Source: a virus
Taxonomy: Duplodnaviria; Heunggongvirae; Uroviricota; Caudoviricetes
Length of the DNA: 9,552 bases
Direction: 5' to 3' (one strand)
IMG/VR virus record: IMGVR_UViG_3300014922_000029
This document shows, in pieces, positions 1 through 9,552 of the stretch. Both the position numbers and the translations under genes were made by a program. A model generated the notes under the pieces. It did not search any database. It saw nothing but the letters and a program-made list of their open reading frames with translations, and was not told the origin of the DNA. The first letter of the stretch is position 1. Every line of letters starts with the position of its first letter.

Positions 1-181
1 CATCGCGCTGGCGCACCTGCATATCAGTAATGGTGGCGTTTGCCAGCTCCAGCTCTCTGGCTTTTTTATCGCGCTGCGCTTTGTAGGTGATGGCGTTATC
101 GCGGTAATGGTCTGTTGCCAGCCACAGCGATCCACAACCAAGCAGCAGGGCAATAAGCACGCCATACAGCACACGATTCAT
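1..181 (-). CDS. Rz: Rz i-spanin, N-terminal 60 codons only (3' end runs off the window start)
   Basis: Reverse complement of 1-181 starts with ATG at 181..179 and reads [60 protein letters not shown] with no stop before the window edge. N-terminal transmembrane segment followed by the [15 protein letters not shown] motif matches lambda Rz as I remember it. Absent from the ORF track because it is incomplete. Confidence 0.8.
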
Positions 182-182
182 A

Positions 183-296
183 TCACCACCAACGGATTGC
201 CCAGACCAGAACAGCAATTGCCACAATACGAATGGCAAAAGCTGCCGCTCTTGTTAAATCCAGACTGGCTGGCGTCTCCACTTCAATGCCTTTCAT
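183..296 (-). CDS. Hypothetical 37-aa peptide with C-terminal hydrophobic segment ([37 protein letters not shown]), translationally coupled to Rz
   Basis: ATG at 296..294 preceded by GAGG about 9 nt upstream. Its TGA stop (185..183) is separated by a single nucleotide from the Rz ATG (TGA-T-ATG). Not in the ORF track because it is short. No family recognised. Confidence 0.35.
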
Positions 297-394
297 AATG
301 GACAACCTCAGAAAGAATCTTTTATACTTCCTCACAGGGAAAGCACCTCCCTCACCATAATTTCTCCCTTGCCTTACTCAAGGTCAGAAAACAC

Positions 395-428
395 AAAACC
401 CCGCTTGCTGCCAACAAACGGGGTTTTT
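395..428. terminator. Bidirectional intrinsic terminator downstream of the endolysin gene
   Basis: aaaaccccg (395-403) pairs with cggggtttt (419-427) around a 15-nt loop. T-runs follow on both strands (tttttacttttatt on plus, ttttgtgtttt on minus). Confidence 0.5.
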
Positions 429-517
429 ACTTTTATTCACTTAGGTTTTGCCAGTTCACAGGACTTCGTGTTATCCGCCCGCGTTGACCAACGGCATTTT
501 TCAGCAAAATATTCTGC

Positions 518-1057
518 TTATCTGTCGATTCCCCAGCACACCAGCGCGCTCTCCTGGTCACGACGGAATACCTGACCGTAGCAGTTATTTGAGCGAATAC
601 GGCAGTCTCTGCCACCGTCCTTAATCCACCAGCGAATCGCCTCACATGCTCCANNNNNNNNNNNNNNNNNNNNNNNNNNNNNNNNNNNNNNNNNNNNNNN
701 NNNNNNNNNNNNNNNNNNNNNNNNNNNNNNNNNNNNNNNNNNNNNNNNNNNNNNNNNNNNNNNNNTCAGCGGCACTCTGATGTTTTTCTCCACCCACGCC
801 AGCGCTTTATCACGCTCAATGGCGTTAACCCGGTCGCATTTTCCCTTCGACAGCTTCATGCCAGGAATAACAGGCTTACCATCCACCCGGGTGGCTCCAC
901 GGCAGATGGTCCAGATCCCCGCACCATCACGGTATGCCATGGTGTGGTTACCTTCTTTTTCGTCAAGAAACTGGTCGAGGATTTCAGGCGCAGACGCCCC
1001 TGCACCAATCAGCGCCAGAACGGCAGCCGACAGGCCGTATCTGATTTTTGCGTTCAT
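518..1057 (-). CDS. R: Phage endolysin, T4-lysozyme-like muramidase with N-terminal SAR (signal-anchor-release) domain; resembles the Qin prophage lysozyme RrrQ/YdfQ
   Basis: 179-aa ORF with ATG at 1057. N-terminus MNAKIRYGLSAAVLALIGAGASAP is a Gly/Ala-rich weakly hydrophobic SAR-type segment, followed by the lysozyme core (EGNHTMAYRDGAGIWTICRGAT). It lies directly after a pinholin. The ORF spans the N run 654-765 in frame, so the central part is unknown. Confidence 0.8.
   Translation of the reverse strand: MNAKIRYGLSAAVLALIGAGASAPEILDQFLDEKEGNHTMAYRDGAGIWTICRGATRVDGKPVIPGMKLSKGKCDRVNAIERDKALAWVEKNIRVPLXXXXXXXXXXXXXXXXXXXXXXXXXXXXXXXXXXXXXXGACEAIRWWIKDGGRDCRIRSNNCYGQVFRRDQESALVCWGIDR
654..765. 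other. Run of 112 N (assembly gap or masked sequence) inside the endolysin gene
   Basis: Literal n characters in the sequence. Confidence 1.
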
Positions 1058-1120
1058 GGATATTTATCAGGATTTATCGGTTTCTGCCCACGGACAGGTT
1101 TATCTGTTCCGGTCAGTGAA

Positions 1121-1471
1121 TTAAGGTTGTGATTCCGGTGGAGTCTTCAGAGAACCAGTAATTCTTCCCGGTAGATTTCCTTTGTAGGTTATCCATACAT
1201 TCTGCGCCTCTAAAATTACGGGGCGCTTTTCCGGCAACGGTTCGTTCCCTTCACATAACCCGGCAGCAACATCCATGAAAAACTGCTTCGCCTGCTTTTT
1301 CGCCTCAGCTTCGTAAAACTCCAGCGTGGCACCTTCAGTACGGTCAAGACTAATCGCCACATTTGGCAACAACAGTGACGGATACCCACCAATTTCCAGT
1401 GCCACAGTAACAGTAATCTTATCCGGGTAATGATTTATCCCTTTAACAACCAGTTCGTATTTTTTCTTCAT
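1121..1471 (-). CDS. Hypothetical protein between holin and endolysin, YdfR-like (DUF1327 family as I recall)
   Basis: 116-aa ORF with ATG at 1471, GGAGAG Shine-Dalgarno about 8 nt upstream, and start 4 nt after the holin stop (TAA-AGCG-ATG). Its position between the S-like and R-like genes matches the essQ-ydfR-rrrQ order of the K-12 Qin prophage. Family assignment is from memory. Confidence 0.6.
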   Translation of the reverse strand: MKKKYELVVKGINHYPDKITVTVALEIGGYPSLLLPNVAISLDRTEGATLEFYEAEAKKQAKQFFMDVAAGLCEGNEPLPEKRPVILEAQNVWITYKGNLPGRITGSLKTPPESQP

Positions 1472-1475
1472 CGCT

Positions 1476-1691
1476 TTACTCTCCCCGGGCCGCCTTACGC
1501 CGGTCTTCTTTAATTTTGAAATACAGGTTCGTCAGGTACGTCAGCAGACCAAACAGCAGACTCCCCAGCACGCCTATTGCCGCCCACTGAGACGGGGAAA
1601 CCCTGTCCAGCAACTGCAGGAACCAGTAGCCCGTTCCCACCGCTGACGTGGTGTATGACACACCTGTTGTGATTTTTTCCATCTGGTACAT
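1476..1691 (-). CDS. S: Class II holin (S21-like pinholin) with dual-start motif (Met1 and Met4)
   Basis: 71-aa [74 protein letters not shown] with two TM segments and a charged C-terminus, closely resembling phage 21 S21. GGGAGA Shine-Dalgarno 6-7 nt upstream. The two in-frame starts MYQM fit the antiholin/holin arrangement. Confidence 0.85.
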
Positions 1692-1766
1692 ACCCCGTCT
1701 CCCGTACTCGGAAGCTCACAACAACAAAAGGGCCACCAGCTCTTTACTGATGACCCTGACTCACCG

Positions 1767-2057
1767 TTACAGCATTGTGCCCGATTCTGGCTGTGTGTCT
1801 GTCATATCCGTCACCGGTGACTCCGGCTGAATATCACCATTTTCCGTGGTGACATCTTCCGCCTGTGGTTCCGGAAGCAGTTCCGGGGATGGTTCCGGCT
1901 GTGCACCAAGCAATTCATCCAGAATTGAATCCACTTCTGCATCAAGACGCGCCTCAAGGTTCTGCCGAAGTTGCTGTTTCAGTGCGCTCCGGACTTCTTC
2001 AGAGCGCAGGACTTCCTTCACTGCCTCAGCAGTGACCAGCGATTTTATTTCTGACAT
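1767..2057 (-). CDS. Hypothetical acidic protein, 96 aa (helical N-terminus, Pro/Glu/Asp-rich tail)
   Basis: Internal ATG at 2057..2055 of the track ORF 1767..2231; sequence MSEIKSLVTAEAVKEVLRSEEVRSALKQQL...TDMTDTQPESGTML. The longer N-terminal extension would overlap the upstream ORF and reads as low-complexity junk. Shine-Dalgarno is weak (GAGA). Confidence 0.45.
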   Translation of the reverse strand: MSEIKSLVTAEAVKEVLRSEEVRSALKQQLRQNLEARLDAEVDSILDELLGAQPEPSPELLPEPQAEDVTTENGDIQPESPVTDMTDTQPESGTML

Positions 2058-2082
2058 AGGATTTTCTCGTTGAAAGGGGTTA

Positions 2083-2277
2083 TTAAGAAGGTTGTTCCGG
2101 AATGAGTGGGGCTTCTGTTTTTGCTCCGGCTGACTGACTGGCGCTGATTTTCTCTGCGGCCCTTTTATCAATCTGCCTGCGCCAGAAATCGCGCACTGCC
2201 CTGTACCCACCCGAAAGAAGATACAGCACACAGACCGCCGTACAGAAGTACAGCATCACCTGATGAACAAATGTCAT
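2083..2277 (-). CDS. Hypothetical small membrane protein, 64 aa (one N-terminal TM helix, charged tail)
   Basis: ATG at 2277; MTFVHQVMLYFCTAVCVLYLLSGGY hydrophobic segment. Co-directional and closely spaced with the 96-aa ORF (25-nt gap). Confidence 0.4.
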   Translation of the reverse strand: MTFVHQVMLYFCTAVCVLYLLSGGYRAVRDFWRRQIDKRAAEKISASQSAGAKTEAPLIPEQPS

Positions 2278-2374
2278 AGTTTCTTACCGTTATGGTTGAC
2301 AATGAGAACTGTTTTCATTTAAAAAACCGATATACGAAAGCATCTTTTCTTTACATTCTCCATTGGGATTACCT

Positions 2375-2411
2375 CCGCCAGCTTCCGTTCCTGCCGCTGG
2401 CGGCTTTTTTT
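2375..2411 (+). terminator. Plus-strand intrinsic terminator in the intergenic region 3' of nanS-p
   Basis: ccgccagc (2375-2382) pairs with gctggcgg (2396-2403); alternatively a short gccg-ctgg-cggc hairpin. Followed by ttttttt at 2405-2411. On the minus strand the hairpin is preceded, not followed, by the T-run, so it is oriented for plus-strand transcription. Confidence 0.4.
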
Positions 2412-2416
2412 GCCGG

Positions 2417-4405
2417 TTATGATGATGCCCGGCTTTCGTTAACTTTGACTGTGACCGTATCAAGCAGTACAGGATACGTCGCTTTTGCCCCCGTGATATC
2501 TGTCAGCGTCAGCGTATCTGCTGTAAAGCCATCATTTGTCCACATCACAAGGTCAAACGCCGTCTGCTCTGTACCATCAATCACCGGAACGACTCTTTCG
2601 CTGTTATTTCCCGCAAAGCGGAAAACAACCGTATGCCAGTTATGGTCAAACGCACCAAATGTACCCAGTTGTGCATTCGACGTGCCCTTGTGGTGCATAA
2701 GATTCAGATTTGATGCATCCGTCTGAAGGAAGAATGATGCCAGCATACTGTTTGCTGCCGCGCCTGACGCCCACTGCGACACCGGCCAGTAGAGACCAAA
2801 GACAAACTGTCCGTTCACCAGTTCGCTTCCATCCGGAATTTTGAACCGTACGGCAATTTCACCCCCCTTGCTGAGAAGATTTTTTGCCTCCTCCACTGCA
2901 ACAGTACAGAACATTTTCCAGGACGTCAGTTTACCGGGCTGTTTTTCCAGTCGCAGCGCTTTCCGTCCACCGTCATCAGTCACAGTGCCTTTGCCACCGG
3001 CAGCCCCCCACTGCTGCTCTGTCCATACACCATTTCCACTGTTCGCATCATATTCAGCCACCGTCCTGGTACTGCTCACGGCCTCATCATGACCAGTACC
3101 AGCAACACCGCCATCCTGCGGTTTCTCAACACCCGGTACCCCCGGACTGACATCATCACCGGGAGTTGTACCACCCGACTGCGGTGCGCTCTGCCCGGTA
3201 AGGAACGATAATGTCCGCCCGGCGTACTGCAAAATGGCACCTGCCAGGCGGTCTGAAACAATGCCTCTTCGCGCCCATGAACTGAAGTGCGTTTTACGAT
3301 CGGCTGACGTCCAGTTACTGGCAGTGCGTGACGCAGCGCCATAGTATCCCGCCGGGATAATGTCCGGATCTTCTGACGGCTCGTTTGTCGGCACATTCAC
3401 ACCATGCTCATCCGTCATCAACGGCACAAAGTGAATATTCTGCGCAGCTTTGCCTTTATACCCACCGTAAACCGCCTCATACGGCGCTGCATACCTTTCC
3501 TTCCAGTAGTACGTGGTATCACCGCAAATCCACGGGACGCTGGCCGTTGTCCCGCCAGTACACTGCTCTGCCACATCTGCCAGTTCCGTACGGAACTGAT
3601 TTACCATGGCAAGGAAAAGCGCATTGTGTTCTGCATGTCTCCCCGAACTGACATCTTTTTCTCCCTGCATCCAAATCACTGATAACAGCACGTTCTTCGG
3701 ATTTTTCTTCAGGGCCGCACGGGTTCTGCTGACCAGGTCATAATACAGCGGTTTATCCGCCCCCCACAGGGACGAGCCTGCGGTCGCTCCCGACGCTGCG
3801 TTAAACGCCCCCTCGGCCCCCGCAGTAAATCCCGAATCGCCACGGCCACATGGAACAAGAAGGATACCCGCATTCGCAGGCATAAACGGCAGCAGCTTTT
3901 TGGCAACATGCAGAGCATGCCCCACACAACCGTACTGCCCTTTATTAAGGTCCGCTTCAGGATGATTCAGGTTACTCATATCCTGCACATCATGCAGACA
4001 GTGGTCTGCCGGAATGATGTCGTTATATTTACAGGCGGCACCACCCGGCGTCACCGTACTGCGACGCGCCAGCTGTTTAATACGCGGGTCCGGACGGTCA
4101 TATGTCTCCGGCAGCGGCAGCCCTTCCCCAAAAGACATTGAGTTTGACTGCCCCGCCAGAACAACAACAAAGTAATACTCCGGTTCGCTGGTGGTGCTGA
4201 TAACTGTGCCTTCTCCATCCGACGGCTTCACCACCACAGGTGTGGTGACATCACCTTCCGCCGCAATGGCCTGCATCAGGGTATAAGGCGTGATGGCGAC
4301 AGGGCTGCCAAATGGCTGCCACCCCTCCTTCAGTTTTTGTGTCAGTCGCTCCGCAAGGTCTGACGGCGACGCCGCCCTGACCACATCGTAGTGTTTAAAT
4401 GTCAT
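2417..4405 (-). CDS. nanS-p: Prophage-encoded sialate O-acetylesterase of the NanS-p type (N-terminal DUF1737-like region, SGNH/SASA esterase core, C-terminal probable carbohydrate-binding region)
   Basis: 662-aa ORF. N-terminus MTFKHYDVVRAASPSDLAERLTQKLKEGWQPFG and the esterase motif VVLAGQSNSMSFG match the NanS-p family found between stx and the lysis genes in Stx phages. Size and position between the moron locus and the lysis cassette fit. Confidence 0.85.
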   Translation of the reverse strand: MTFKHYDVVRAASPSDLAERLTQKLKEGWQPFGSPVAITPYTLMQAIAAEGDVTTPVVVKPSDGEGTVISTTSEPEYYFVVVLAGQSNSMSFGEGLPLPETYDRPDPRIKQLARRSTVTPGGAACKYNDIIPADHCLHDVQDMSNLNHPEADLNKGQYGCVGHALHVAKKLLPFMPANAGILLVPCGRGDSGFTAGAEGAFNAASGATAGSSLWGADKPLYYDLVSRTRAALKKNPKNVLLSVIWMQGEKDVSSGRHAEHNALFLAMVNQFRTELADVAEQCTGGTTASVPWICGDTTYYWKERYAAPYEAVYGGYKGKAAQNIHFVPLMTDEHGVNVPTNEPSEDPDIIPAGYYGAASRTASNWTSADRKTHFSSWARRGIVSDRLAGAILQYAGRTLSFLTGQSAPQSGGTTPGDDVSPGVPGVEKPQDGGVAGTGHDEAVSSTRTVAEYDANSGNGVWTEQQWGAAGGKGTVTDDGGRKALRLEKQPGKLTSWKMFCTVAVEEAKNLLSKGGEIAVRFKIPDGSELVNGQFVFGLYWPVSQWASGAAANSMLASFFLQTDASNLNLMHHKGTSNAQLGTFGAFDHNWHTVVFRFAGNNSERVVPVIDGTEQTAFDLVMWTNDGFTADTLTLTDITGAKATYPVLLDTVTVKVNESRASS

Positions 4406-4502: not shown

Positions 4503-4533
4503 ATACGAAAAAGGCCGCGCAGTTGCGCAGCCT
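4503..4533 (-). terminator. Intrinsic terminator (minus strand) between the lipoprotein moron and nanS-p
   Basis: Minus-strand RNA aggcugcgc-aacu-gcgcggccu forms a 9-bp stem including one U-G pair, followed by uuuuucguauu. Confidence 0.65.
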
Positions 4534-4586
4534 TATGAATTCTGGTTAAAATCCATTCGATTATAAAAATGTATATCTCATGCTGT

Positions 4587-4616
4587 NNNNNNNNNNNNNN
4601 NNNNNNNNNNNNNNNN
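4587..4616. other. Run of 30 N (gap or masked sequence) in the non-coding stretch
   Basis: Literal n characters in the sequence. Confidence 1.
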
Positions 4617-4885
4617 AGAAAGCCCCTCCGGAGAGGGGCTGGAGAGTGGCGCTATGTGCCATTGCATGGTGCCGGGTGCCTCCCGGTGAGTTCAGCCCGG
4701 TGACACTAAACCCGCATATTCTCGCTTACGATCATCAAAGAGATCATACCGTTCACCAGTCGCCCCTCCGCACAGGGGGATTCACCATGCGAAATTTTTT
4801 TAACAAATGCTCAGTCTGACAGGCAACTGTCAACTTACTGAATTGTGAGGAATTTAACACTTCACAGCACAATATCTTTCCAGCG

Positions 4886-4927
4886 CCCCAAAATCATCAG
4901 GACAGGAGAAAATCTTCTCCCCCTGTC
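4886..4927 (-). terminator. Possible terminator hairpin overlapping the lipoprotein stop codon
   Basis: gacaggagaa (4901-4910) pairs with ttctcc(ccc)tgtc (4915-4927) around loop aatc, with a 3-nt bulge. On the minus strand it is followed by an interrupted T-run (cugaugauuuugg). Weak. Confidence 0.3.
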
Positions 4928-5354
4928 AGAGTTTAAAATCCAGCACGCCATTTCTAAATGCTTTATATACTCCTGAAGACGGTGGTGATGGTATATCAGC
5001 ATTCTTTACTGCATTCATCGCTTCACGACATAAATCGGGATCACCGCTTTCTCTTTTAACCTGTAGCAGAAGACCATTCGGGGCCATATACATTCTCAGT
5101 GAACACTCTTTTCCTGAATACTTACTCGCATCCTTTAACTGTTCTTCTATGGCTTTCCTGACCTGAATGGCATACTGCCTGATTTCTTCACTGGCATCAG
5201 GGGTACGTTCCGATGAGCTCAAATTTTGCGACTTTATTAATTTATCTGAGTGATACAGAGAAGCATCATAATTATTTGTCGATACATCTTTTGTGCAGCC
5301 AGTTGTCAGACTGGCTAATATCAAAACAAGAACTGGTACAGCACGGCAATACAT
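4926..5354 (-). CDS. Lipoprotein with a TolA C-terminal (domain III)-like domain; predicted Lol-sorted outer-membrane lipoprotein
   Basis: 142-aa ORF; ATG at 5354 with GGAG Shine-Dalgarno about 9 nt upstream. Signal peptide MYCRAVPVLVLILASLTTGC with lipobox L-T-T-G-C and no Asp at +2. The C-terminal 85 residues (IRQYAIQVRKAIEEQLKDASKYSGKECSLRMYMAPNGLLLQVKRESGDPDLCREAMNAVKNADIPSPPSSGVYKAFRNGVLDFKL) align along their length with E. coli TolA domain III as I recall it (...YAGQIKSAIESKFYDASSYAGKTCTLRIKLAPDGMLLDIKPEGGDPALCQAALAAAKLAKIPKPPSQAVYEVFKNAPLDFKP). The gene and its upstream region are AT-rich relative to neighbours. Confidence 0.75.
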   Translation of the reverse strand: MYCRAVPVLVLILASLTTGCTKDVSTNNYDASLYHSDKLIKSQNLSSSERTPDASEEIRQYAIQVRKAIEEQLKDASKYSGKECSLRMYMAPNGLLLQVKRESGDPDLCREAMNAVKNADIPSPPSSGVYKAFRNGVLDFKL

Positions 5355-5632
5355 TTATCCATCTCCATATTAACAAGAACAATTATCTATAAAATATAGT
5401 AAATATGCGGGATCCGGGAGGACTTGTAACTATCATCTCCGGATCAGCATGTAGTTTTTATTTTTCCGGATGATATATGCCGCAATAATACCCCTGCATA
5501 CAGATGCCTGCAAATATCTACGAAGCATCCGGCGAGAATAAACAAGGAAGTCTGAGGCTATCTTATATGATAGCCTGTTGCTCAAAAGACAATGATTCAC
5601 TCATCAGAACCAACAACGCATAATGCAGATAA

Positions 5633-5709
5633 TGGACCGCCATCGAGGACTCGAACCCCGCGCAGCCAGCTTCGAAGGCTGGCGCTCTATCCCGATGAGC
5701 TAATGGCGG
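5633..5709 (-). tRNA. tRNA-Arg, anticodon UCG (reads CGA/CGG)
   Basis: Reverse complement folds as a cloverleaf by hand: acceptor ccgccat/atggcgg, D stem gctc/gagc, anticodon stem ccagc/gctgg with loop cuUCGaa, T arm cgggg-ttcgagt-cctcg, discriminator U, encoded CCA. Unusual C1:G72 first pair. Confidence 0.8.
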
Positions 5710-5718
5710 TATGTGATA

Positions 5719-5794
5719 TGGTGGCCCTTGCTGGATTTGAACCAGCGACCTGGCGATTATGAGTCGCTCGCTCTCACCACTGAGCTAAAGGGCC
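5719..5794 (-). tRNA. tRNA-Ile2 type (anticodon CAU, lysidine-modified in vivo; formally could be tRNA-Met)
   Basis: Reverse complement ggccctttagctcagtggtgagagcgagcgactCATaatcgccaggtcgctggttcaaatccagcaagggccacca folds as a canonical cloverleaf and is near-identical in layout to E. coli ileX-type tRNA as I remember it; encoded CCA. Stx-type phages carry an ileZ-arg tRNA cluster at this position. Confidence 0.85.
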
Positions 5795-5834
5795 GGGCAT
5801 AGGATAATAACGGTACGTAACTAATTCTGCAATA

Positions 5835-6893
5835 TCATCCGTTCTGACTGACTAAATTCTGAACTTCCCTGACCGTCTGCTCAAAACGCTCAGTCTCCAG
5901 CTCAACGCCAGTTGCACGACGTCCCAGCGCTATCGCTGCTTTGACTGTCGAACCTGACCCCATGAAGAAATCTGCAACCAGGTCACCCGGACGACTGCTC
6001 GCGCTGATTATCTGCTGCAGCATTTCTGCCGGTTTTTCGCACGGATGTTTCCCGGGATAGTACTGCACCGGTTTATGCGTCCACACATCGGTGTACGGCA
6101 CCTGCACCGTCACACCAAAATACCGCCGCAGATGCTTATATTCACTCTGCAGTTCCGTATACTGCCGGTTCAGTTCACTGTATGTGCTGACCAGTTGGTG
6201 ATGTGGCTTTTCCAGTTCTCCGCGCTGATGCTTATCTTCTGCCACCCGGGCAAACAGCGCCTGTAATTTCAGATAATCGCTTTCGTCCGGTAGCTGCCAC
6301 TGGCTGGCACTGAACCAGTGCGACACCATGTTTTTCTTTCCTGTGGCATCAGCAATCTGTTTTGCCGTTATCCCCAGGGCAGCACGCGCATCACGAAAGT
6401 AAGAAATCAGCGGGGCCATCACATGCTGTTTCAGTGCCCTGCCCTTCGCCTCATACCCGGCATCTTTCGGGCGATACGGCCCCTGATAATGTTCCGCGAA
6501 CAGAATGCGCTCTGTGGCGGGGAAATATGCCCTCAGGCTTTCCTTGTTGCACCCGTTCCAGCGTCCGGACGGCTTCGCCCAGATAATATGGTTCAGCACA
6601 TTGAAGCGTTCACGCATCATGATTTCAATGTCAGACGCCAGGCGATGGCCACAGAACAGGTAAAGACTTCCGGCAGGTTTCAGCACCCGCCAGAACTGCG
6701 CAAGACACTGGTCCAGCCACTTCAGGTAATCATCGTCGCCCTTCCACTGGTTATCCCAGCCCTCAGGCTTCACTTTAAAGTACGGCGGGTCCGTGACTAT
6801 CAGGTCAACAGAATTTTCGGGTAACGACCGGATAAATTCCAGGCAGTCGGCGTTGATTAACTCACAACTGGATATTTTTACAGTACTAAGCAT
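5835..6893 (-). CDS. DNA methyltransferase, beta-class amino-methyltransferase (DPPY catalytic motif near the N-terminus, FxGxG SAM-binding motif near the C-terminus); most likely N6-adenine
   Basis: 352-aa ORF with VTDPPYF at residues about 33-39 and DFFMGSGST near residue 310; this motif order defines the beta group. No restriction endonuclease gene nearby, so an orphan methyltransferase. Shine-Dalgarno at the ATG (6893) is weak. Confidence 0.85.
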   Translation of the reverse strand: MLSTVKISSCELINADCLEFIRSLPENSVDLIVTDPPYFKVKPEGWDNQWKGDDDYLKWLDQCLAQFWRVLKPAGSLYLFCGHRLASDIEIMMRERFNVLNHIIWAKPSGRWNGCNKESLRAYFPATERILFAEHYQGPYRPKDAGYEAKGRALKQHVMAPLISYFRDARAALGITAKQIADATGKKNMVSHWFSASQWQLPDESDYLKLQALFARVAEDKHQRGELEKPHHQLVSTYSELNRQYTELQSEYKHLRRYFGVTVQVPYTDVWTHKPVQYYPGKHPCEKPAEMLQQIISASSRPGDLVADFFMGSGSTVKAAIALGRRATGVELETERFEQTVREVQNLVSQNG

Positions 6894-7027
6894 GGATCAT
6901 TAAGCCTGTCTCTGATAGGCTCATTCTGCTTTTGCGCAAAGCAGTGGGCCTGAGGTTTGCTTGTGATCCGGACGCATGAGCAGATGGCTGGTGAGTGCCC
7001 CTAACACCCACCAGCCGCCCATTTACC

Positions 7028-7057
7028 ACAAATAAAAAAGCCTTCAGGACTGAAGGC
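7028..7057 (-). terminator. Intrinsic terminator (minus strand) overlapping the 3' end of the small ORF, upstream of the methyltransferase
   Basis: gccttca (7040-7046) pairs with tgaaggc (7051-7057) around loop ggac. The minus-strand RNA hairpin is followed by uuuuuuauuu (complement of 7028-7039). Confidence 0.55.
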
Positions 7058-7241
7058 GTCTGTAACAACCGAACTGATAGTCTGCCAGCCCCGCCATAAC
7101 AAGCTGGGTCAGTATTAACTGGCAGCGTTCACGTGAAAGGTAAGTATTCTGCGCAATCTCCCCGACTGTCGCCGGTTCGGTGGCACTTAATTCATTAAAC
7201 ACCACTCTGGCGGTTTCGGTCATATCCTGCTGTTTCAGCAT
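7044..7241 (-). CDS. Hypothetical 65-aa protein, possibly winged-helix-like, located in the late-operon leader between two terminators
   Basis: ATG at 7241 with good Shine-Dalgarno (aagggaaaaagacATG). Sequence MLKQQDMTETARVVFNELSATEPATVGEIAQNTYLSRERCQLILTQLVMAGLADYQFGCYRRLQS. The longer track ORF from 7328 begins at a GTG without a Shine-Dalgarno. Fold assignment is a guess from the helix-turn pattern. Confidence 0.45.
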   Translation of the reverse strand: MLKQQDMTETARVVFNELSATEPATVGEIAQNTYLSRERCQLILTQLVMAGLADYQFGCYRRLQS

Positions 7242-7363
7242 GTCTTTTTCCCTTTTCCGGTTAACGTGACACACCAATAACTCTTGTCGAAAAAGCCAGC
7301 AAGCTGAAAGACAGGTATTCACCGCCACCAGCGCGTTTACTGTACTGACGCGATTTCAGTCAT

Positions 7364-7385
7364 AAAAAACCCGCCAGGCGGCGGG
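7364..7385 (-). terminator. tR'-like intrinsic terminator about 65 nt downstream of the late promoter
   Basis: cccgcc (7370-7375) pairs with ggcggg (7380-7385) around loop aggc. The minus-strand RNA hairpin is followed by uuuuuu (complement of 7364-7369). Confidence 0.7.
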
Positions 7386-7417
7386 GTGTAAAAAATCTTC
7401 TAACGTCAGGCATAAAA

Positions 7418-7462
7418 CGCCCATCATTAGGGCAAATTTACCACAGATTCGGGAAAAATCAA
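7418..7462 (-). promoter_or_regulatory. Late promoter pR' with qut-like pause element (the Q engagement site)
   Basis: Minus-strand sequence just 3' of the Q stop: TTGATT (-35, 7462..7457), 16-bp spacer, TAAATT (-10, 7440..7435), then tgccctAATGATGGGCG. Lambda pR' has -10 TAAATT followed by tgactcaACGATGGGTT (from memory); the -10 hexamer and the downstream GATGGG core are shared. Predicted start near 7427. Confidence 0.6.
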
Positions 7463-7467
7463 CAAAG

Positions 7468-8289
7468 CTATCTGGTCACCTTTTTCAGTTGTTGTTCTGC
7501 CCATGCTTCTTCAATATCAAACTGCACCACCAGCGTATCGTAAAAACGTTTAACTGTTTTTTTCCATGTATCAAGAGATATGGCATCGGTTACATTACAT
7601 ATGGCATTAAATGCCTCCGTTGAAGGTAATCTTTCATAGCCACGCCCACCACAACGCTGACAGTTTCTGAAAACCGGCACACCCTGTTTTTCCGACTCTT
7701 CACGATGAATGGCAACACCGCGCCCACGACAATCTTTACAGGCAGTGGATACCTCTCCCTTCCCTCCACACTCCGGACAGGCAACTTTTACCACCTCCCT
7801 GACTTTTTTCCATTCCTCCCAGTAAGACGGATACACGCCTTTTGTGCACTTTGCCCACACTGGCGGCTTACCATCCGGATACTGGATCTTGTTTGTAAAA
7901 ACCTCGCTTTCAATAAATTTTTTTCCGTGACAGCAGGGGCACTGTTTTTTGCTCGCCGCGCTACGGGCATAATCTTCAAACGCATACGAAGCCATAATAC
8001 GCATCACTGCCGGTTTTATTTCTGCCGGGAGTTTTCTTAACGCCGCCACGCGATCACACCGACTGAGTGCATATTCTGTCAGCAATTCTGTTGCCCGCTC
8101 TCTGTCATTCATACTAATGCCCATTTTCCCAAGGAACGCAGAAAACCCCATCTCAGCCCGATTCTGTGTCATGCCCTGCGCGGCCATCACATCAGTGATA
8201 CTCAGCGCATCTTTCGACGTTGAGGCCGATGCATCAGTCAGGCCGGGGGATTTTGGGGAGTAGTATTTCGGTAAATCTTCCAGTTTCAT
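7468..8289 (-). CDS. Q: Late-gene antitermination protein Q (larger Q type with several CxxC zinc-binding motifs, QuuQ-like)
   Basis: 273-aa ORF. N-terminal MKLEDLPKYYSPKSP...ITDVMAAQGM resembles prophage Q antiterminators as I recall them. CxxC pairs CPCCHG, CPECGG, CKDCRG, CQRCGG. Sits immediately upstream of the pR'/qut-like promoter and tR'. Start overlaps the rusA stop (ATGA). Confidence 0.8.
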   Translation of the reverse strand: MKLEDLPKYYSPKSPGLTDASASTSKDALSITDVMAAQGMTQNRAEMGFSAFLGKMGISMNDRERATELLTEYALSRCDRVAALRKLPAEIKPAVMRIMASYAFEDYARSAASKKQCPCCHGKKFIESEVFTNKIQYPDGKPPVWAKCTKGVYPSYWEEWKKVREVVKVACPECGGKGEVSTACKDCRGRGVAIHREESEKQGVPVFRNCQRCGGRGYERLPSTEAFNAICNVTDAISLDTWKKTVKRFYDTLVVQFDIEEAWAEQQLKKVTR

Positions 8290-8666
8290 TTTTTGACCTG
8301 CCCTTCAAGCATTATGGGGTAAATCTTCACCCCCAGACGTCCACCAGATACTGGCTGGCCACGTACAATATTGATTTCATCAAACTGCTCATCGTCCATT
8401 AACAACCCCGCGTGCGTCAGCGCATCCAGCGGTGCTTTCAGAATATTGTCCAGGTCACGACGACGCTTATCCGGTGGCTCTGCAATAATCCTGATTACCA
8501 GCCTTCCGGACAGGCTTAATTTCAGCCGCTGCTGGCGAACAATAAGCGCCACAGCCCGGCGATAACGCTTTCCCTCCTCCGAGATAAAATATGTGCTGCC
8601 ACGGCGTCGCCAGTAAGTGTTCACCGTCGGCGGGTAAGGCAAAACAAATTCTATGCGTTCGGTCAT
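8286..8666 (-). CDS. rusA: RusA-family Holliday junction resolvase
   Basis: 126-aa ORF; the motif PPDKRRRDLDNILKAPLDALTHAGLLMDDEQ matches RusA (E. coli RusA has [23 protein letters not shown]). Sits in the ninG/rusA-to-Q position typical of lambdoid phages. Confidence 0.9.
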   Translation of the reverse strand: MTERIEFVLPYPPTVNTYWRRRGSTYFISEEGKRYRRAVALIVRQQRLKLSLSGRLVIRIIAEPPDKRRRDLDNILKAPLDALTHAGLLMDDEQFDEINIVRGQPVSGGRLGVKIYPIMLEGQVKK

Positions 8667-9552
8667 TTATGCTTTCCACTTCAGAACACCCGAATTTCTC
8701 GCGTGCATTAAAAAACGAATCAGCAACAACAGCTGACTGCCGTGTTTTTCTTCAAAATCTTTTACTCCGGCATGTAGTTTGTTATGGCATTTACGGCACA
8801 ACGGAATAACAAACAAATCGTCAGCCTTTGTTCCCATCCCTCCCAGTCCATGACCAATGATGTGATGCGGATCATCTGCCTGATTACCGCACGTCATGCA
8901 TTTCTGCGTTTTTACCCAGCGCGTGTATACAGGCATCTCTTCCCGTTGTGGTTTCTGGCGCTGGAGATACTGAGCCGGTGACTCCGGATCAACGGCAATG
9001 CTGACCACCGTCTTTTCCTGTGGCCGGATTTGTTGCTGGTGGGCGTGAAGTGGTAGCGCAATATTTTTTGTGCGCTGCTTCAGTATGCTGGTGGCTGTCT
9101 GCTCTCCCGGTATGATGTCGCTCTCGCGATAAAGCGAGCGGATTTTCTCCGCCGGTAATCCCAGTGAGCGGCGTAATACAGCCTCCGGTAGTGCGTCCGC
9201 TACCTGATTGCAGACCGCCCACCAAGATAATTCAGCCAGAGATAATTCACGCTCCTGCGTACCGCTTATTGCGTGACCGATGACGTCAATCATCCATGCT
9301 GACAGGTTTTGATGAGCAAGTTGCTCGAGTGATTCGGATGTCTGGTCACGCAGCTGGTTGTCGCAGTGCCAGCACAACACCATTGCGCCGGTACCATAAC
9401 GGTGAATGACGGTTTCGCTGTGATGATAATAGCCGTGTGGCCACTGGCAGGATTTAACATGGCGCAGTAACCAGTCAGACAATGCGCCAGCGCCACCAGC
9501 AGCACGAATCACTCGTTCGTCGCTGAAAAATGGCAGTAATGATTTATCCTCC
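8667..9552 (-). CDS. DUF968-like prophage protein (YdfU-like) with a C-terminal Cys/His-rich, HNH-like zinc-binding motif; N-terminus lies beyond the window end
   Basis: Reading frame is open from the window edge (9552) to the TAA at 8669..8667. The track start at 9512 is a GTG, and the frame continues upstream without a stop (EDKSLLPFFSDER-VIRAAGG...). C-terminal CMTCGNQADDPHHIIGHG...CRKCHNKLH. Stop abuts the rusA ATG (TAA-ATG). Family name is from memory. Confidence 0.55.
   Translation of the reverse strand, partial: EDKSLLPFFSDERVIRAAGGAGALSDWLLRHVKSCQWPHGYYHHSETVIHRYGTGAMVLCWHCDNQLRDQTSESLEQLAHQNLSAWMIDVIGHAISGTQERELSLAELSWWAVCNQVADALPEAVLRRSLGLPAEKIRSLYRESDIIPGEQTATSILKQRTKNIALPLHAHQQQIRPQEKTVVSIAVDPESPAQYLQRQKPQREEMPVYTRWVKTQKCMTCGNQADDPHHIIGHGLGGMGTKADDLFVIPLCRKCHNKLHAGVKDFEEKHGSQLLLLIRFLMHARNSGVLKWKA

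Follow-up and report, generated by a model that had tools for sequence, protein, structure and literature searches.

A lipoprotein gene with a TolA domain III at the stx position in the late region of a lambdoid Escherichia coli prophage

The 9,552-nucleotide stretch of viral DNA analysed here (IMG/VR record IMGVR_UViG_3300014922_000029; the window in what follows) raises the question of what a prophage carries, and how it would express it, when its late region is arranged as in Shiga toxin-converting (Stx) phages and the toxin genes are missing. All late-region genes lie on the minus strand, on which every feature given below is read, in the order DUF968, RusA, Q, a pR'-like promoter, a tR' terminator, a 65-aa ORF, a DNA methyltransferase, tRNA-Ile2(CAT), tRNA-Arg(TCG), a 142-aa lipoprotein with TolA domain III, an STnc100-like sRNA, nanS-p, DUF1378, DUF826, the holin, YdfR, the lysozyme and the start of Rz. 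The strand check, the Pfam-assigned genes and the ARAGORN tRNAs agree with the gene order of the original prediction; the span given there, 4926-9552, is limited to the Q-to-cargo half, and the nanS-p and lysis genes that it described are located at 1-4405. Two stretches are N-masked (654-765 and 4587-4616), each too short to conceal stx. In the nearest genome the prophage adjoins ompW, after which one of the phage matches, Stx2_12E129_PPompW, is named. The explanation that we consider probable as a whole is that the window would represent the Q-controlled leader of the late operon of a lambdoid E. coli prophage in which the stx slot has received a different payload.

The first genes in this order are closely related to those of the Stx2a phage Stx2_EH1910 (LC567834), the closest phage record. 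Gene 8667-9552 encodes a DUF968/HNH-like protein of the ydfU type (Pfam PF06147, E 5e-64) whose 5' end is lost at the window edge; the homologue in strain EC2 has 352 aa and the corresponding start would fall beyond 9552. It is followed by the gene for the Holliday-junction resolvase RusA (8286-8666; Pfam PF05866, E 1e-16), with 91% aa identity to the rusA product of Stx2_EH1910, and by that for the late antiterminator Q (7468-8289), a quuQ-type protein of 273 aa with CXXC zinc-finger motifs (Pfam PF03589, E 5e-52; phrog_127, E 2e-113) and 97.4% aa identity to its Stx2_EH1910 counterpart. A candidate pR' was read from the sequence itself at 7435-7462 (TTGATT, a 16-nt spacer and TGg-TAAATT), and from this we infer that late transcription may start here. 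The element is missing from the output of the promoter scan because it matches the consensus at only 8 of 12 positions; the scan reported three promoter-like sites where 4.2 are expected from shuffled sequence, hence no excess. Some 50-60 nt downstream of the candidate pR' the terminator scan found a tR'-like intrinsic terminator (7362-7385; CCCGCC-GCCT-GGCGGG followed by a T run), the fold of 7362-7440 having -25.1 kcal/mol and z -2.7, and the pR'/tR' stretch is almost identical in Stx2_EH1910. A 65-aa ORF of phrog_331 (7044-7241; E 2e-37; 98.5% aa identity to Stx2_EH1910) comes next, with a second intrinsic terminator after it at 7040-7057 (terminator scan; fold z -3.8), and then an orphan N6/N4 DNA methyltransferase of 352 aa (5835-6893; Pfam PF01555, E 1e-43; PADLOC MTase_II, E 4e-163) that is 94.6% identical in amino acids to that of Stx2_EH1910.

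Between the methylase and the cargo lies a tRNA cluster preceded by a pT-like promoter at 5804-5832 (TTGCAG, a 17-nt spacer and TATTAT), one base off an element that the record of phage 933W labels "pT; putative tRNA promoter" and that is putative there too. The first tRNA (5719-5794; ARAGORN; Rfam tRNA, 72.5 bits) has the anticodon CAT and is of the ileZ type (tRNA-Ile2); it is called Met by ARAGORN and Ile (ileZ) by PGAP and the 933W annotation. The second (5633-5709; ARAGORN; Rfam 55.1 bits) is an argN-type tRNA-Arg with the anticodon TCG that aligns with argN of 933W. Of argO, the third tRNA of Stx phages, alignment with 933W and Stx2_EH1910 revealed a decayed 5' half at about 5574-5619, in which ARAGORN made no tRNA call.

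The upstream junction of the cargo cassette lies inside this decayed argO. The cassette, at 4879-5573 by the breakpoints of the alignment with Stx phages, comprises about 700 bp of low GC (0.41 for 4863-5611 against 0.50-0.53 in the flanks) and substitutes for the argO 3' half and stx2AB of related Stx phages, its downstream junction falling some 25-45 nt past the position of the stxB stop. The interval from argN to the sRNA measures 782 bp and is the same in three IMG/VR contigs. When Stx2A and Stx2B were compared with the whole window by tblastn, the best E-value was 0.2 and no Stx-like frame emerged, in agreement with the original claim that no such frame is present, and blastn of the stx operon against the window matched only the non-coding stretch downstream of stxB, so that no stx remnant was detected. 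Together with the match of the backbone to a true Stx2a phage, in which the gene order is the same and stx2AB sits where the cassette is found here, this sustains the view of an Stx-phage backbone carrying another payload.

The accessory-gene ('moron') slot after ileZ-argN-argO serves, however, for exchange in general, with at least six types of payload, among which stx is one. Our survey comprised 64 IMG/VR contigs whose methylase shows 94% identity or more; they come from the 80 best among at least 600 contigs that matched. Within this sample the slot was without protein cargo in 38 contigs, held stx2 in 6 and the lipoprotein of the window in 3, and contained TerB, DUF3927 or methylase genes in the remainder; the intervals fell into seven discrete classes, six with a protein payload and an empty class of 134-137 bp. 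The same alternatives were seen in a spread of E. coli genomes, and the flanks of the slot are present in 3663 of 5426 complete ones. The proposed Stx-phage architecture thus stands in so far as this late module occurs in phages with stx, but the module is not specific to them, as the share of stx2 in the sample indicates. The best phage matches are Stx2a phages and most of the 398 matching phage records are Stx-converting, but Stx phages are strongly over-represented in the phage collection, so that a best match to one of them overstates the link with toxin phages.

These intervals also bear on whether the window derives from a former Stx phage that lost stx by deletion, the lipoprotein gene being incidental neighbouring DNA, which we regard as unlikely. 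The argO remnant does show that an ancestor had three tRNAs clustered as is typical for Stx phages, and Stx prophages have documented relatives without stx (PMC8046923). Deletion would nevertheless leave the two flanks abutting, which is the state of the empty class, whereas here they enclose unrelated low-GC DNA with an intact conserved ORF; moreover, most relatives of the module never show stx, so that no stx-bearing ancestor needs to be assumed. Replacement in the exchange slot is the reading that we retain, and since cargo swapping there is common the architecture of the late region is ordinary. The point of some interest is the lipoprotein cargo, with its predicted function, and not the layout.

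The cargo gene (4926-5354) encodes a TolA_C lipoprotein of 142 aa (Pfam PF06519, E 6e-23) that consists of a signal peptide, the lipobox LTTG-C20 with Thr at +2, a disordered, flexible linker of about 30 aa and a copy of TolA domain III (residues 54-141). The latter aligns without gaps with residues 333-420 of E. coli TolA, with 45 of 88 residues identical (51%) and both cysteines kept, and its AF2 model superposes on the TolAIII structures 2X9A and 3QDR with TM 0.80-0.87. PADLOC does not contain the lipoprotein, and a literature search found no paper on it. One could suppose that the ORF is a piece of host tolA that was captured and has no function, hence annotation noise in a slot that is effectively empty. 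The PGAP label tolA does come only from the C-terminal match to TIGR02794, and frameshifted or truncated variants exist. This reading is nonetheless highly improbable given the moderate identity to host TolA and the acquired lipoprotein signal peptide. Homologues of the gene, under the mistaken label "tolA", were counted in 897 of the 5426 complete E. coli genomes, and among the matches listed from these nearly all are annotated as intact tolA CDS, in two alleles. Moreover, dN/dS is 0.29 over the TolA domain, which indicates purifying selection, the lipobox is conserved across homologues, and the protein falls in an existing phage family, phrog_5772. Diverse short lipobox-bearing TolA_C proteins with 32-46% identity were also found in a library of 1.8 billion proteins.

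Downstream of the cargo, an STnc100/PasD-like prophage sRNA was identified at 4610-4819 (Rfam RF02076, 167.7 bits, E 1e-38), with its 3' end partly N-masked; Stx2_EH1910 has this sRNA in the corresponding place, after stxB. Gene 2417-4405 encodes a nanS-p type prophage sialate O-acetylesterase of 662 aa with the domains DUF1737, SASA and DUF6645, which is the NanS-p architecture (PMC10462455). It is followed by small ORFs of the families DUF1378 (2083-2277; Pfam E 5e-35) and DUF826 (1767-2057; Pfam E 6e-28), both reported between nanS-p and S in Stx2a phages (PMC10462455). The lysis cassette (1-1691) contains the P21-type class II holin S (1476-1691; Pfam PF04971, E 7e-33; 100% aa identity to Stx2_EH1910), a YdfR-family ORF between S and R (1121-1471), the lysozyme R (518-1057, with N-masking at 654-765), an ORF of 37 aa (183-296) and, cut by the window start, the initial 60 codons of the spanin Rz (1-181); its assignment is based on how the near-identical EC2 prophage is annotated and on the translations. 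After Rz, the sister prophage has in addition a gene for a TonB_C-domain lipoprotein. The nanS-p and lysis half of the window is closer to the non-Stx phage PhiR5_1 (97.7% DNA identity, also for nanS-p itself, which has only 58.5% aa identity to the Stx2_EH1910 copy) than to Stx phages, which makes the window a mosaic of more than one lineage.

With regard to expression, the layout implies that Q would drive read-through into the cargo on induction. Q would load onto RNA polymerase at pR' (about 7462-7435), and the polymerase would then read through three terminators, tR' (7385-7370) and those at 7057-7040 and 4534-4511, so that one late transcript would span the methylase, tRNAs, cargo, sRNA, nanS-p and lysis genes. 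The last of these terminators (4511-4534), between the sRNA and nanS-p, is a strong intrinsic one (terminator scan; fold -18.3 kcal/mol, z -3.3), while a hairpin right after the cargo stop codon (4895-4923) has a poor T tract and is at best a weak terminator, the fold of 4878-4930 (-16.4 kcal/mol, z -1.1) not being significant. In lysogens, the pT-like promoter could give a low-level, Q-independent transcript of the tRNAs, cargo and sRNA up to the terminator at 4534-4511. Some basal expression of the cargo is possible there because pT is conserved and the terminator that follows argO in 933W is missing; the terminator scan found none between argN and the cargo ORF.

The same features suit a different account, which is quite possible, in which the cargo is mainly a lysogenic-conversion gene transcribed from pT or from a promoter of its own in the AT-rich 220-nt leader, and Q provides only a late boost; the slot would then be a convenient recombination site and Q control incidental to the job of the protein. 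Other lipoproteins that prophages place in the envelope, Bor, Cor and Llp among them, act on the cell that carries them, and the 933W record describes Bor as "expressed in lysogenic state". A near-consensus promoter (TTGAGC-18-TATAAT), moreover, precedes the start codon of the mEp460-type allele of the gene by about 25 nt. However, the sequences in front of the mEp460-type and window alleles are unrelated, and the scan found no promoter above chance level upstream of the latter. Overproduced in the periplasm, TolA domain III makes cells leaky, and expressing the cargo strongly and constitutively should therefore be costly. We prefer the reading in which Q would drive read-through after induction and pT might add a low-level transcript in lysogens; expression mainly from pR', as originally predicted, is suggested by the layout.

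As to what the protein would do, the original prediction that it is released with lysis appears doubtful, as a product with a conserved lipobox and Thr at +2 should remain membrane-anchored and not be freely released. From Thr at +2 we infer sorting to the outer membrane. The cargo is not a secreted toxin; its putative action is within the envelope, where it would imitate the TolA tip or serve as its decoy. Agents that must bind TolA, such as group A colicins and the g3p of filamentous phages, could be captured by it, or it could compete for TolB or Pal and so loosen the outer membrane at a late stage of infection. The decoy role is proposed by analogy. Resistance to colicin A and phage is reported when TolA is sequestered by periplasmic g3p-N1 (PMC10424213).

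Compared with known phages, the window shares with Stx2_EH1910 the whole order from ydfU through Q, methylase, tRNAs, sRNA and nanS-p to Rz, with 93% DNA identity over 5612-8927 (Q, methylase, tRNAs) and, nanS-p excepted, aa identities from 91% (RusA) to 100% (holin). The slot distinguishes them, with argO, stx2A and stx2B in that phage and the decayed argO 5' half and the lipoprotein cassette here; the window also differs from Stx2a phages in the YdfR ORF that separates S from R and in the lack of an antirepressor between R and Rz. Phage 933W (NC_000924) has the tRNAs, sRNA region, nanS-p and lysis genes in common with the window at 71-93%, but its Q belongs to another family and it lacks an intact methylase. 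Both flanks of the slot are also found in stx-negative lambdoid prophages (such as phages TL-2011a and phi296 and the prophages of UTI89, ST131 and O157), where the slot contains nothing beyond argO, or else DUF3927, TerB or methylase genes, and no TolA-domain lipoprotein, and nanS-p too is reported in non-Stx prophages (PMC10462455). The TolA_C genes of the mEp460 type (mEp460_ev081, Rac-like prophages) belong to the same lipoprotein family, with 66% aa and 80% DNA identity over the domain, and also lie between Q/tRNAs and the lysis genes; they differ in forming a tandem pair downstream of the STnc100-like sRNA, where the window has nanS-p, and in their better promoter match.

The lipoprotein differs from TolA of the Tol-Pal system in having neither the inner-membrane anchor (domain I) nor the long helical domain II, in whose stead it has the lipoprotein signal peptide and the short linker. 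Its gene lies outside the tol-pal cluster, in a prophage late operon. As the protein cannot couple to TolQR, it is no energy transducer. With Bor, Cor and Llp of phage T5 it has a functional analogy, all being small lipoproteins encoded by accessory genes in phage late regions, without any relationship of sequence or fold. Bor, Cor and Llp confer serum resistance, or block or modify a receptor in the outer membrane; the lipoprotein described here instead copies a periplasmic domain of an energy-transducing protein of the host.

Every real gene of the window is placed on the minus strand and transcription runs from high to low coordinates, as mapped over the whole window from the ORF listing, Pfam, NCBIfam, PHROG, ARAGORN and Rfam. 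A DUF968/HNH-like gene (8667-9552), the 5' end of which is lost at the window edge, is followed by RusA (8286-8666), the antiterminator Q (273 aa, 7468-8289), an ORF of 65 aa (7044-7241), an N6/N4 DNA methyltransferase (5835-6893), a tRNA with anticodon CAT of the ileZ-type Ile2 (5719-5794) and a tRNA-Arg with anticodon TCG (5633-5709). These are succeeded by the cargo, a 142-aa ORF with a TolA_C domain (4926-5354), an STnc100-like sRNA (4610-4819), nanS-p (2417-4405), DUF1378 (2083-2277), DUF826 (1767-2057), a P21-type holin (1476-1691), a lysozyme (518-1057) and the first 60 codons of Rz (1-181). A YdfR-family ORF of 116 aa (1121-1471) is found between the holin and the lysozyme and a 37-aa ORF (183-296) between the lysozyme and Rz; both positions are variable among related phages. 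The gene order claimed in the original prediction was correct, and the region assigned to it (4926-9552) covers the half from Q to the cargo but omits the nanS-p and lysis half that was also described. Two runs of the window are N-masked, 654-765 in the lysozyme gene and 4587-4616 at the 3' end of the sRNA, and the near-identical locus of the sister prophage in E. coli strain EC2 has ordinary sequence at both places.

Q is predicted to be an antiterminator of the PF03589 family, given its full-length profile match (PF03589, E-value 5e-52; phrog_127, E-value 2e-113 over residues 1-273) and its position directly after RusA, between the nin region and the late operon. The product of 2417-4405 shows the domains DUF1737 (E-value 1e-15), SASA (4e-10) and DUF6645 (7e-33) in Pfam, an architecture which agrees with that described for nanS-p (PMC10462455), and by these domains and its location upstream of S it can be designated nanS-p. 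No nuclease gene adjoining the methylase was found in the window, and the methylase is thus a probable orphan enzyme of type II.

The absence of any StxA- or StxB-like reading frame, as had been claimed, was borne out, since tblastn searches of the complete window with Stx2A and Stx2B reached an E-value of 0.2 at best and blastn of the stx2 operon matched only the non-coding DNA that lies downstream of stxB. Judged by its gene content, the window would not be part of an Stx-converting phage. A stx remnant hidden in the masked run 4587-4616 was considered and rejected, this run being only 30 nt long and inside the sRNA. Alignment with the Stx2a phages 933W (NC_000924) and Stx2_EH1910 (LC567834) places the upstream junction of the cargo cassette inside argO, a decayed 5' half of which is kept at about 5574-5619 (minus strand) and receives no call from ARAGORN. 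Downstream, homology returns at about 4850-4878, some 25-45 nt past the position of the stxB stop codon. About 700 bp lie between the junctions; their GC content, taken over 4863-5611, is 0.41, and that of the flanks 0.50-0.53. The change is a replacement by foreign DNA, stx not having been lost by deletion. Recombination within the tRNA gene may have produced the junction. In the argO remnant the anticodon position has changed from TCT to TTT, and a perfect 7-bp hairpin (GGCTATC-ATATAA-GATAGCC) follows the remnant right at the cassette junction (5556-5619).

The position after the tRNAs, which holds stx2AB in Stx phages, was surveyed in the best 80 of at least 600 matching IMG/VR contigs, all with a methylase at least 94% identical. 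Both anchors were found in 64 of the 80, and the interval from argN to the sRNA anchor was measured. No protein cargo was present in 38 contigs (argO with or without small remnants, 57-233 bp), and stx2AB occupied the slot in six (1466 bp), plus one partial case outside the 64. The other payloads were a TerB-family protein with DUF3927 (887 bp, eight contigs), an uncharacterised 118-aa ORF plus DUF3927 (757-812 bp, six), the TolA_C lipoprotein (782 bp, three), two small ORFs with TerB and DUF3927 (1482 bp, two) and an N6-methylase-like gene (1181 bp, one). The interval in the window is also exactly 782 bp. Examples of payloads after argN are seen in the IMG/VR contigs L010, L011, L019 and L072; the DUF3927 partner of TerB is a membrane peptide, and the two small ORFs are of 74 and 69 aa. 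The same alternative payloads occur in a spread sample of complete E. coli genomes.

The slot serves generally for the exchange of payloads, of which stx is a minority. The reuse of this position for a non-toxin payload, proposed from the window alone, is supported. Such reuse is nevertheless widespread in lambdoid late regions and has been recognised before: stx-negative relatives of Stx prophages are on record (PMC8046923) and nanS-p is known from non-Stx prophages (PMC10462455). The flanks exist in 3663 of 5426 complete E. coli genomes and this cargo with these flanks in only 122; the arrangement of the window is present and annotated in more than 100 complete genomes.

Right after the stop codon of Q there is a candidate pR' (TTGATT, a 16-nt spacer and TGg-TAAATT, 7462-7435), and downstream of it a tR'-like terminator formed by a GC-rich hairpin and a T run (7385-7370). 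The stretch 7462-7370 fits the expected pR'/tR' layout, and from this layout we infer the promoter, which has only 8 of the 12 consensus positions and did not come up in the promoter scan; the stretch is near-identical in Stx2_EH1910. Scanning and folding identified two further strong intrinsic terminators, at 7057-7040 and 4534-4511. At 5832-5804 lies a pT-like element, a single base different from the one that the 933W record gives as a putative tRNA promoter. The terminator that follows argO in 933W is absent from the window, having been lost with the replacement, and the terminator scan found none between argN and the cargo ORF.

A promoter of the cargo's own was sought with a consensus scan, which gave one 9/12 site 130 nt upstream, no better than in shuffled sequence, and by aligning the regions upstream of the two cargo alleles, the window type and the mEp460 type, which showed no conservation. 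A terminator after the cargo was also rejected, as the hairpin there is not significantly stabler than shuffles (fold, z -1.1). The moron features that the cassette does display are its presence/absence polymorphism between conserved flanks and its low GC. In the leader of the cargo, at 5433-5600, an ORF of 55 aa without any family match was treated as spurious.

After induction, Q would enable RNA polymerase that starts at pR' to read through tR' and the other two terminators, and a single late transcript would then cover methylase, tRNAs, cargo, sRNA, nanS-p and lysis genes. Such Q-driven late transcription is established for stx in Stx phages (PMC8065619). A second route is plausible: since the pT-like element is conserved, the terminator after argO is missing and none exists between argN and the ORF, a Q-independent transcript could run from the tRNAs through cargo and sRNA and end at 4534-4511.

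The match of the sRNA to STnc100 (Rfam RF02076) is full-length, with 167.7 bits, and is placed between the cargo and nanS-p. The strong terminator at 4534-4511 comes after this sRNA (4610-4819), the 3' end of which is partly masked. A related prophage, of E. coli O22:H8 RM10809-3, with the same TolA_C cassette (L005 2989-5940) has five STnc100-like copies, one beside the cassette and four as a tandem array within 1.8 kb that lack annotation, upstream of nanS-p.

The cargo begins with a signal peptide, MYCRAVPVLVLILASLTTG-C20-TKD, whose lipobox is LTTG-C20 with Thr at +2. Among 16 sequences, conservation is 90% or more at Gly19, Cys20 and Thr21, and distant homologues keep L-x-[GA]-C, features by which the product is predicted to be a bacterial lipoprotein. 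Sorting of lipoproteins is set by the residue at +2, Asp leading to retention in the inner membrane; the Thr of the cargo would direct it to the outer membrane. The lipobox leads into a linker of some 30 residues for which disorder is predicted. Residues 54-141 align without gaps to residues 333-420 of E. coli TolA, with 45 of 88 identical and both cysteines kept (Cys84 and Cys109 of the cargo), and the match to PF06519 scores 81.4 bits (cutoff 25). The AlphaFold model of the domain superposes on the TolA domain III structures 2X9A and 3QDR with a target-normalised TM of 0.80-0.87, and Foldseek matched 3QDR, 2X9A, 3QDP and 1TOL with E-values of 4e-10 to 1e-9. Profile, cysteine pair and modelled alpha/beta fold together indicate the TolA C-terminal domain (PF06519). 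The C-terminal edge strand LDFK and the motif IP.PPS..VY..F.N are conserved between cargo and E. coli TolA, which would permit binding of the TolB N-terminus, g3p N1 or the translocation domains of group A colicins.

The cargo is named "tolA: cell envelope integrity protein TolA" by RefSeq/PGAP in hundreds of genomes. That it is TolA was rejected, as only the last ~90 residues match and the N-terminus is a lipoprotein signal peptide. TolA has three domains, an inner-membrane helix coupled to TolQR, the long helical domain II and domain III, and the cargo is without the anchor and domain II. It matches only positions 266-361 of the 362 of TIGR02794 and 297-386 of the 387 of NF007065, in the latter with a score of 103, below the cutoff of 213; the PGAP name is an over-annotation caused by the C-terminal match to TIGR02794.

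The cargo falls in phrog_5772, a family without assigned function. Homologues exist in 897 of the 5426 complete E. coli genomes (~16%), in two allele classes. Only one of 50,697 phage records (mEp460_ev081) has the protein, so that phage genomes offered little for comparison and the analysis turned to E. coli genomes and IMG/VR contigs. Over the domain the two alleles have a dN/dS of 0.29, indicating purifying selection. A search of 1.8 billion representative proteins returned many short lipobox-bearing TolA_C proteins (32-46% identity), and the stand-alone lipoprotein form of the domain therefore constitutes a broad family. In the mEp460-type prophages the gene and a second TolA_C gene both lie downstream of the sRNA, at the position of nanS-p in the window; what TolA_C genes share is no single fixed site but a location somewhere from pR' to the lysis genes. 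The EC2 prophage encodes, just after Rz (L002 14406-14732, beyond window position 1), a lipoprotein of 108 aa whose lipobox is LVMG-C and which carries a TonB C-terminal domain. One prophage thus holds lipoprotein copies of the C-terminal domains of both TolA and TonB. The cargo is rich in AUA (2.8 per 100) and AGA/AGG codons (3.5 per 100, or 5 of 142 codons). The tRNA that reads AGA/AGG is argO, yet argO is the one destroyed by the replacement. No paper on a prophage TolA-domain lipoprotein was found in the literature searched, and PADLOC returned no match for the TolA_C or TonB_C lipoproteins. The cargo appears unstudied; it is an uncharacterised and widespread lipoprotein, and the one element of the window that is of moderate interest.

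Toxin-like release of the cargo upon lysis, as had been suggested, is unlikely, because a lipoprotein remains in the envelope. Mimicry of the TolA tip would be the most economical mechanism. In one version the cargo could act as a decoy for agents that need to bind TolA; sequestration of TolA by periplasmic g3p-N1 is reported to result in resistance to colicin A and phage (PMC10424213). In another, it would compete for TolB/Pal and, at high expression towards the end of infection, loosen the outer membrane. Work of the 1990s reportedly found that overproducing TolA domain III in the periplasm causes tolerance to colicins and Ff as well as leakiness, which would fit both versions. More tentatively, and with the balance in our judgement somewhat against it, we suggest that lambdoid prophages of E. 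coli may carry outer-membrane-tethered copies of the C-terminal domains of TolA and TonB, the two envelope energy transducers. As decoys, these could either intercept Tol- and TonB-dependent colicins and phages just under the outer membrane or, through strong late expression from pR', titrate TolB/Pal and so weaken the outer membrane, favouring lysis and vesicle release. If true, interception would amount to a novel form of superinfection or bacteriocin exclusion. A TolA mimic would also be a simple case of a phage copying a host envelope domain, its effect being the manipulation of colicin and phage entry or of outer-membrane integrity.

The Stx-phage architecture attributed to the backbone holds when the window is compared with known phages. 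Its best matches among the 50,697 phage records are Stx2a-converting phages; neither stx remnants nor a best match to a lineage that never carries stx was encountered. By its gene order the window can be assigned to the Stx-phage-type late module (lambdoid, Q82/quuQ type), with argO only as a remnant. The nearest complete genomes (99.3-99.6% identity) show the region within a complete prophage; the one examined, that of EC2, adjoins ompW, and one Stx2a phage among the matches is named for ompW. The window is also a mosaic, its nanS-p and lysis half being 97.7% identical to the non-Stx phage PhiR5_1, and the label "Stx-phage-type" is owed in part to phage databases being biased towards Stx phages. 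This corrects a tempting over-reading, in that what looks like an "Stx-phage late region" is a widely occurring, modular lambdoid backbone exchanging many payloads, and it bears on how stx-negative relatives of Stx phages are read and on how easily toxin genes could move into such backbones.

The closest of these phages, Stx2_EH1910, has the same order, with ydfU, rusA, quuQ, the 65-aa ORF, the methylase and the three tRNAs, then stx2A and stx2B in the slot, and continuing with iraM (on the opposite strand), yjhS/nanS-p, two small ORFs, holin, endolysin and Rz. The two share 93% DNA identity over window 5612-8927, which takes in Q to the tRNAs, and their proteins are 97.4% (Q), 94.6% (methylase), 98.5% (65-aa ORF) and 100% (holin) identical, whereas the nanS-p of the window is a divergent allele (58.5%). 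Phage 933W has the tRNAs, the region downstream of stxB, nanS-p and the lysis genes in common with the window, but differs in having a Q of another family and the methylase only as a remnant.
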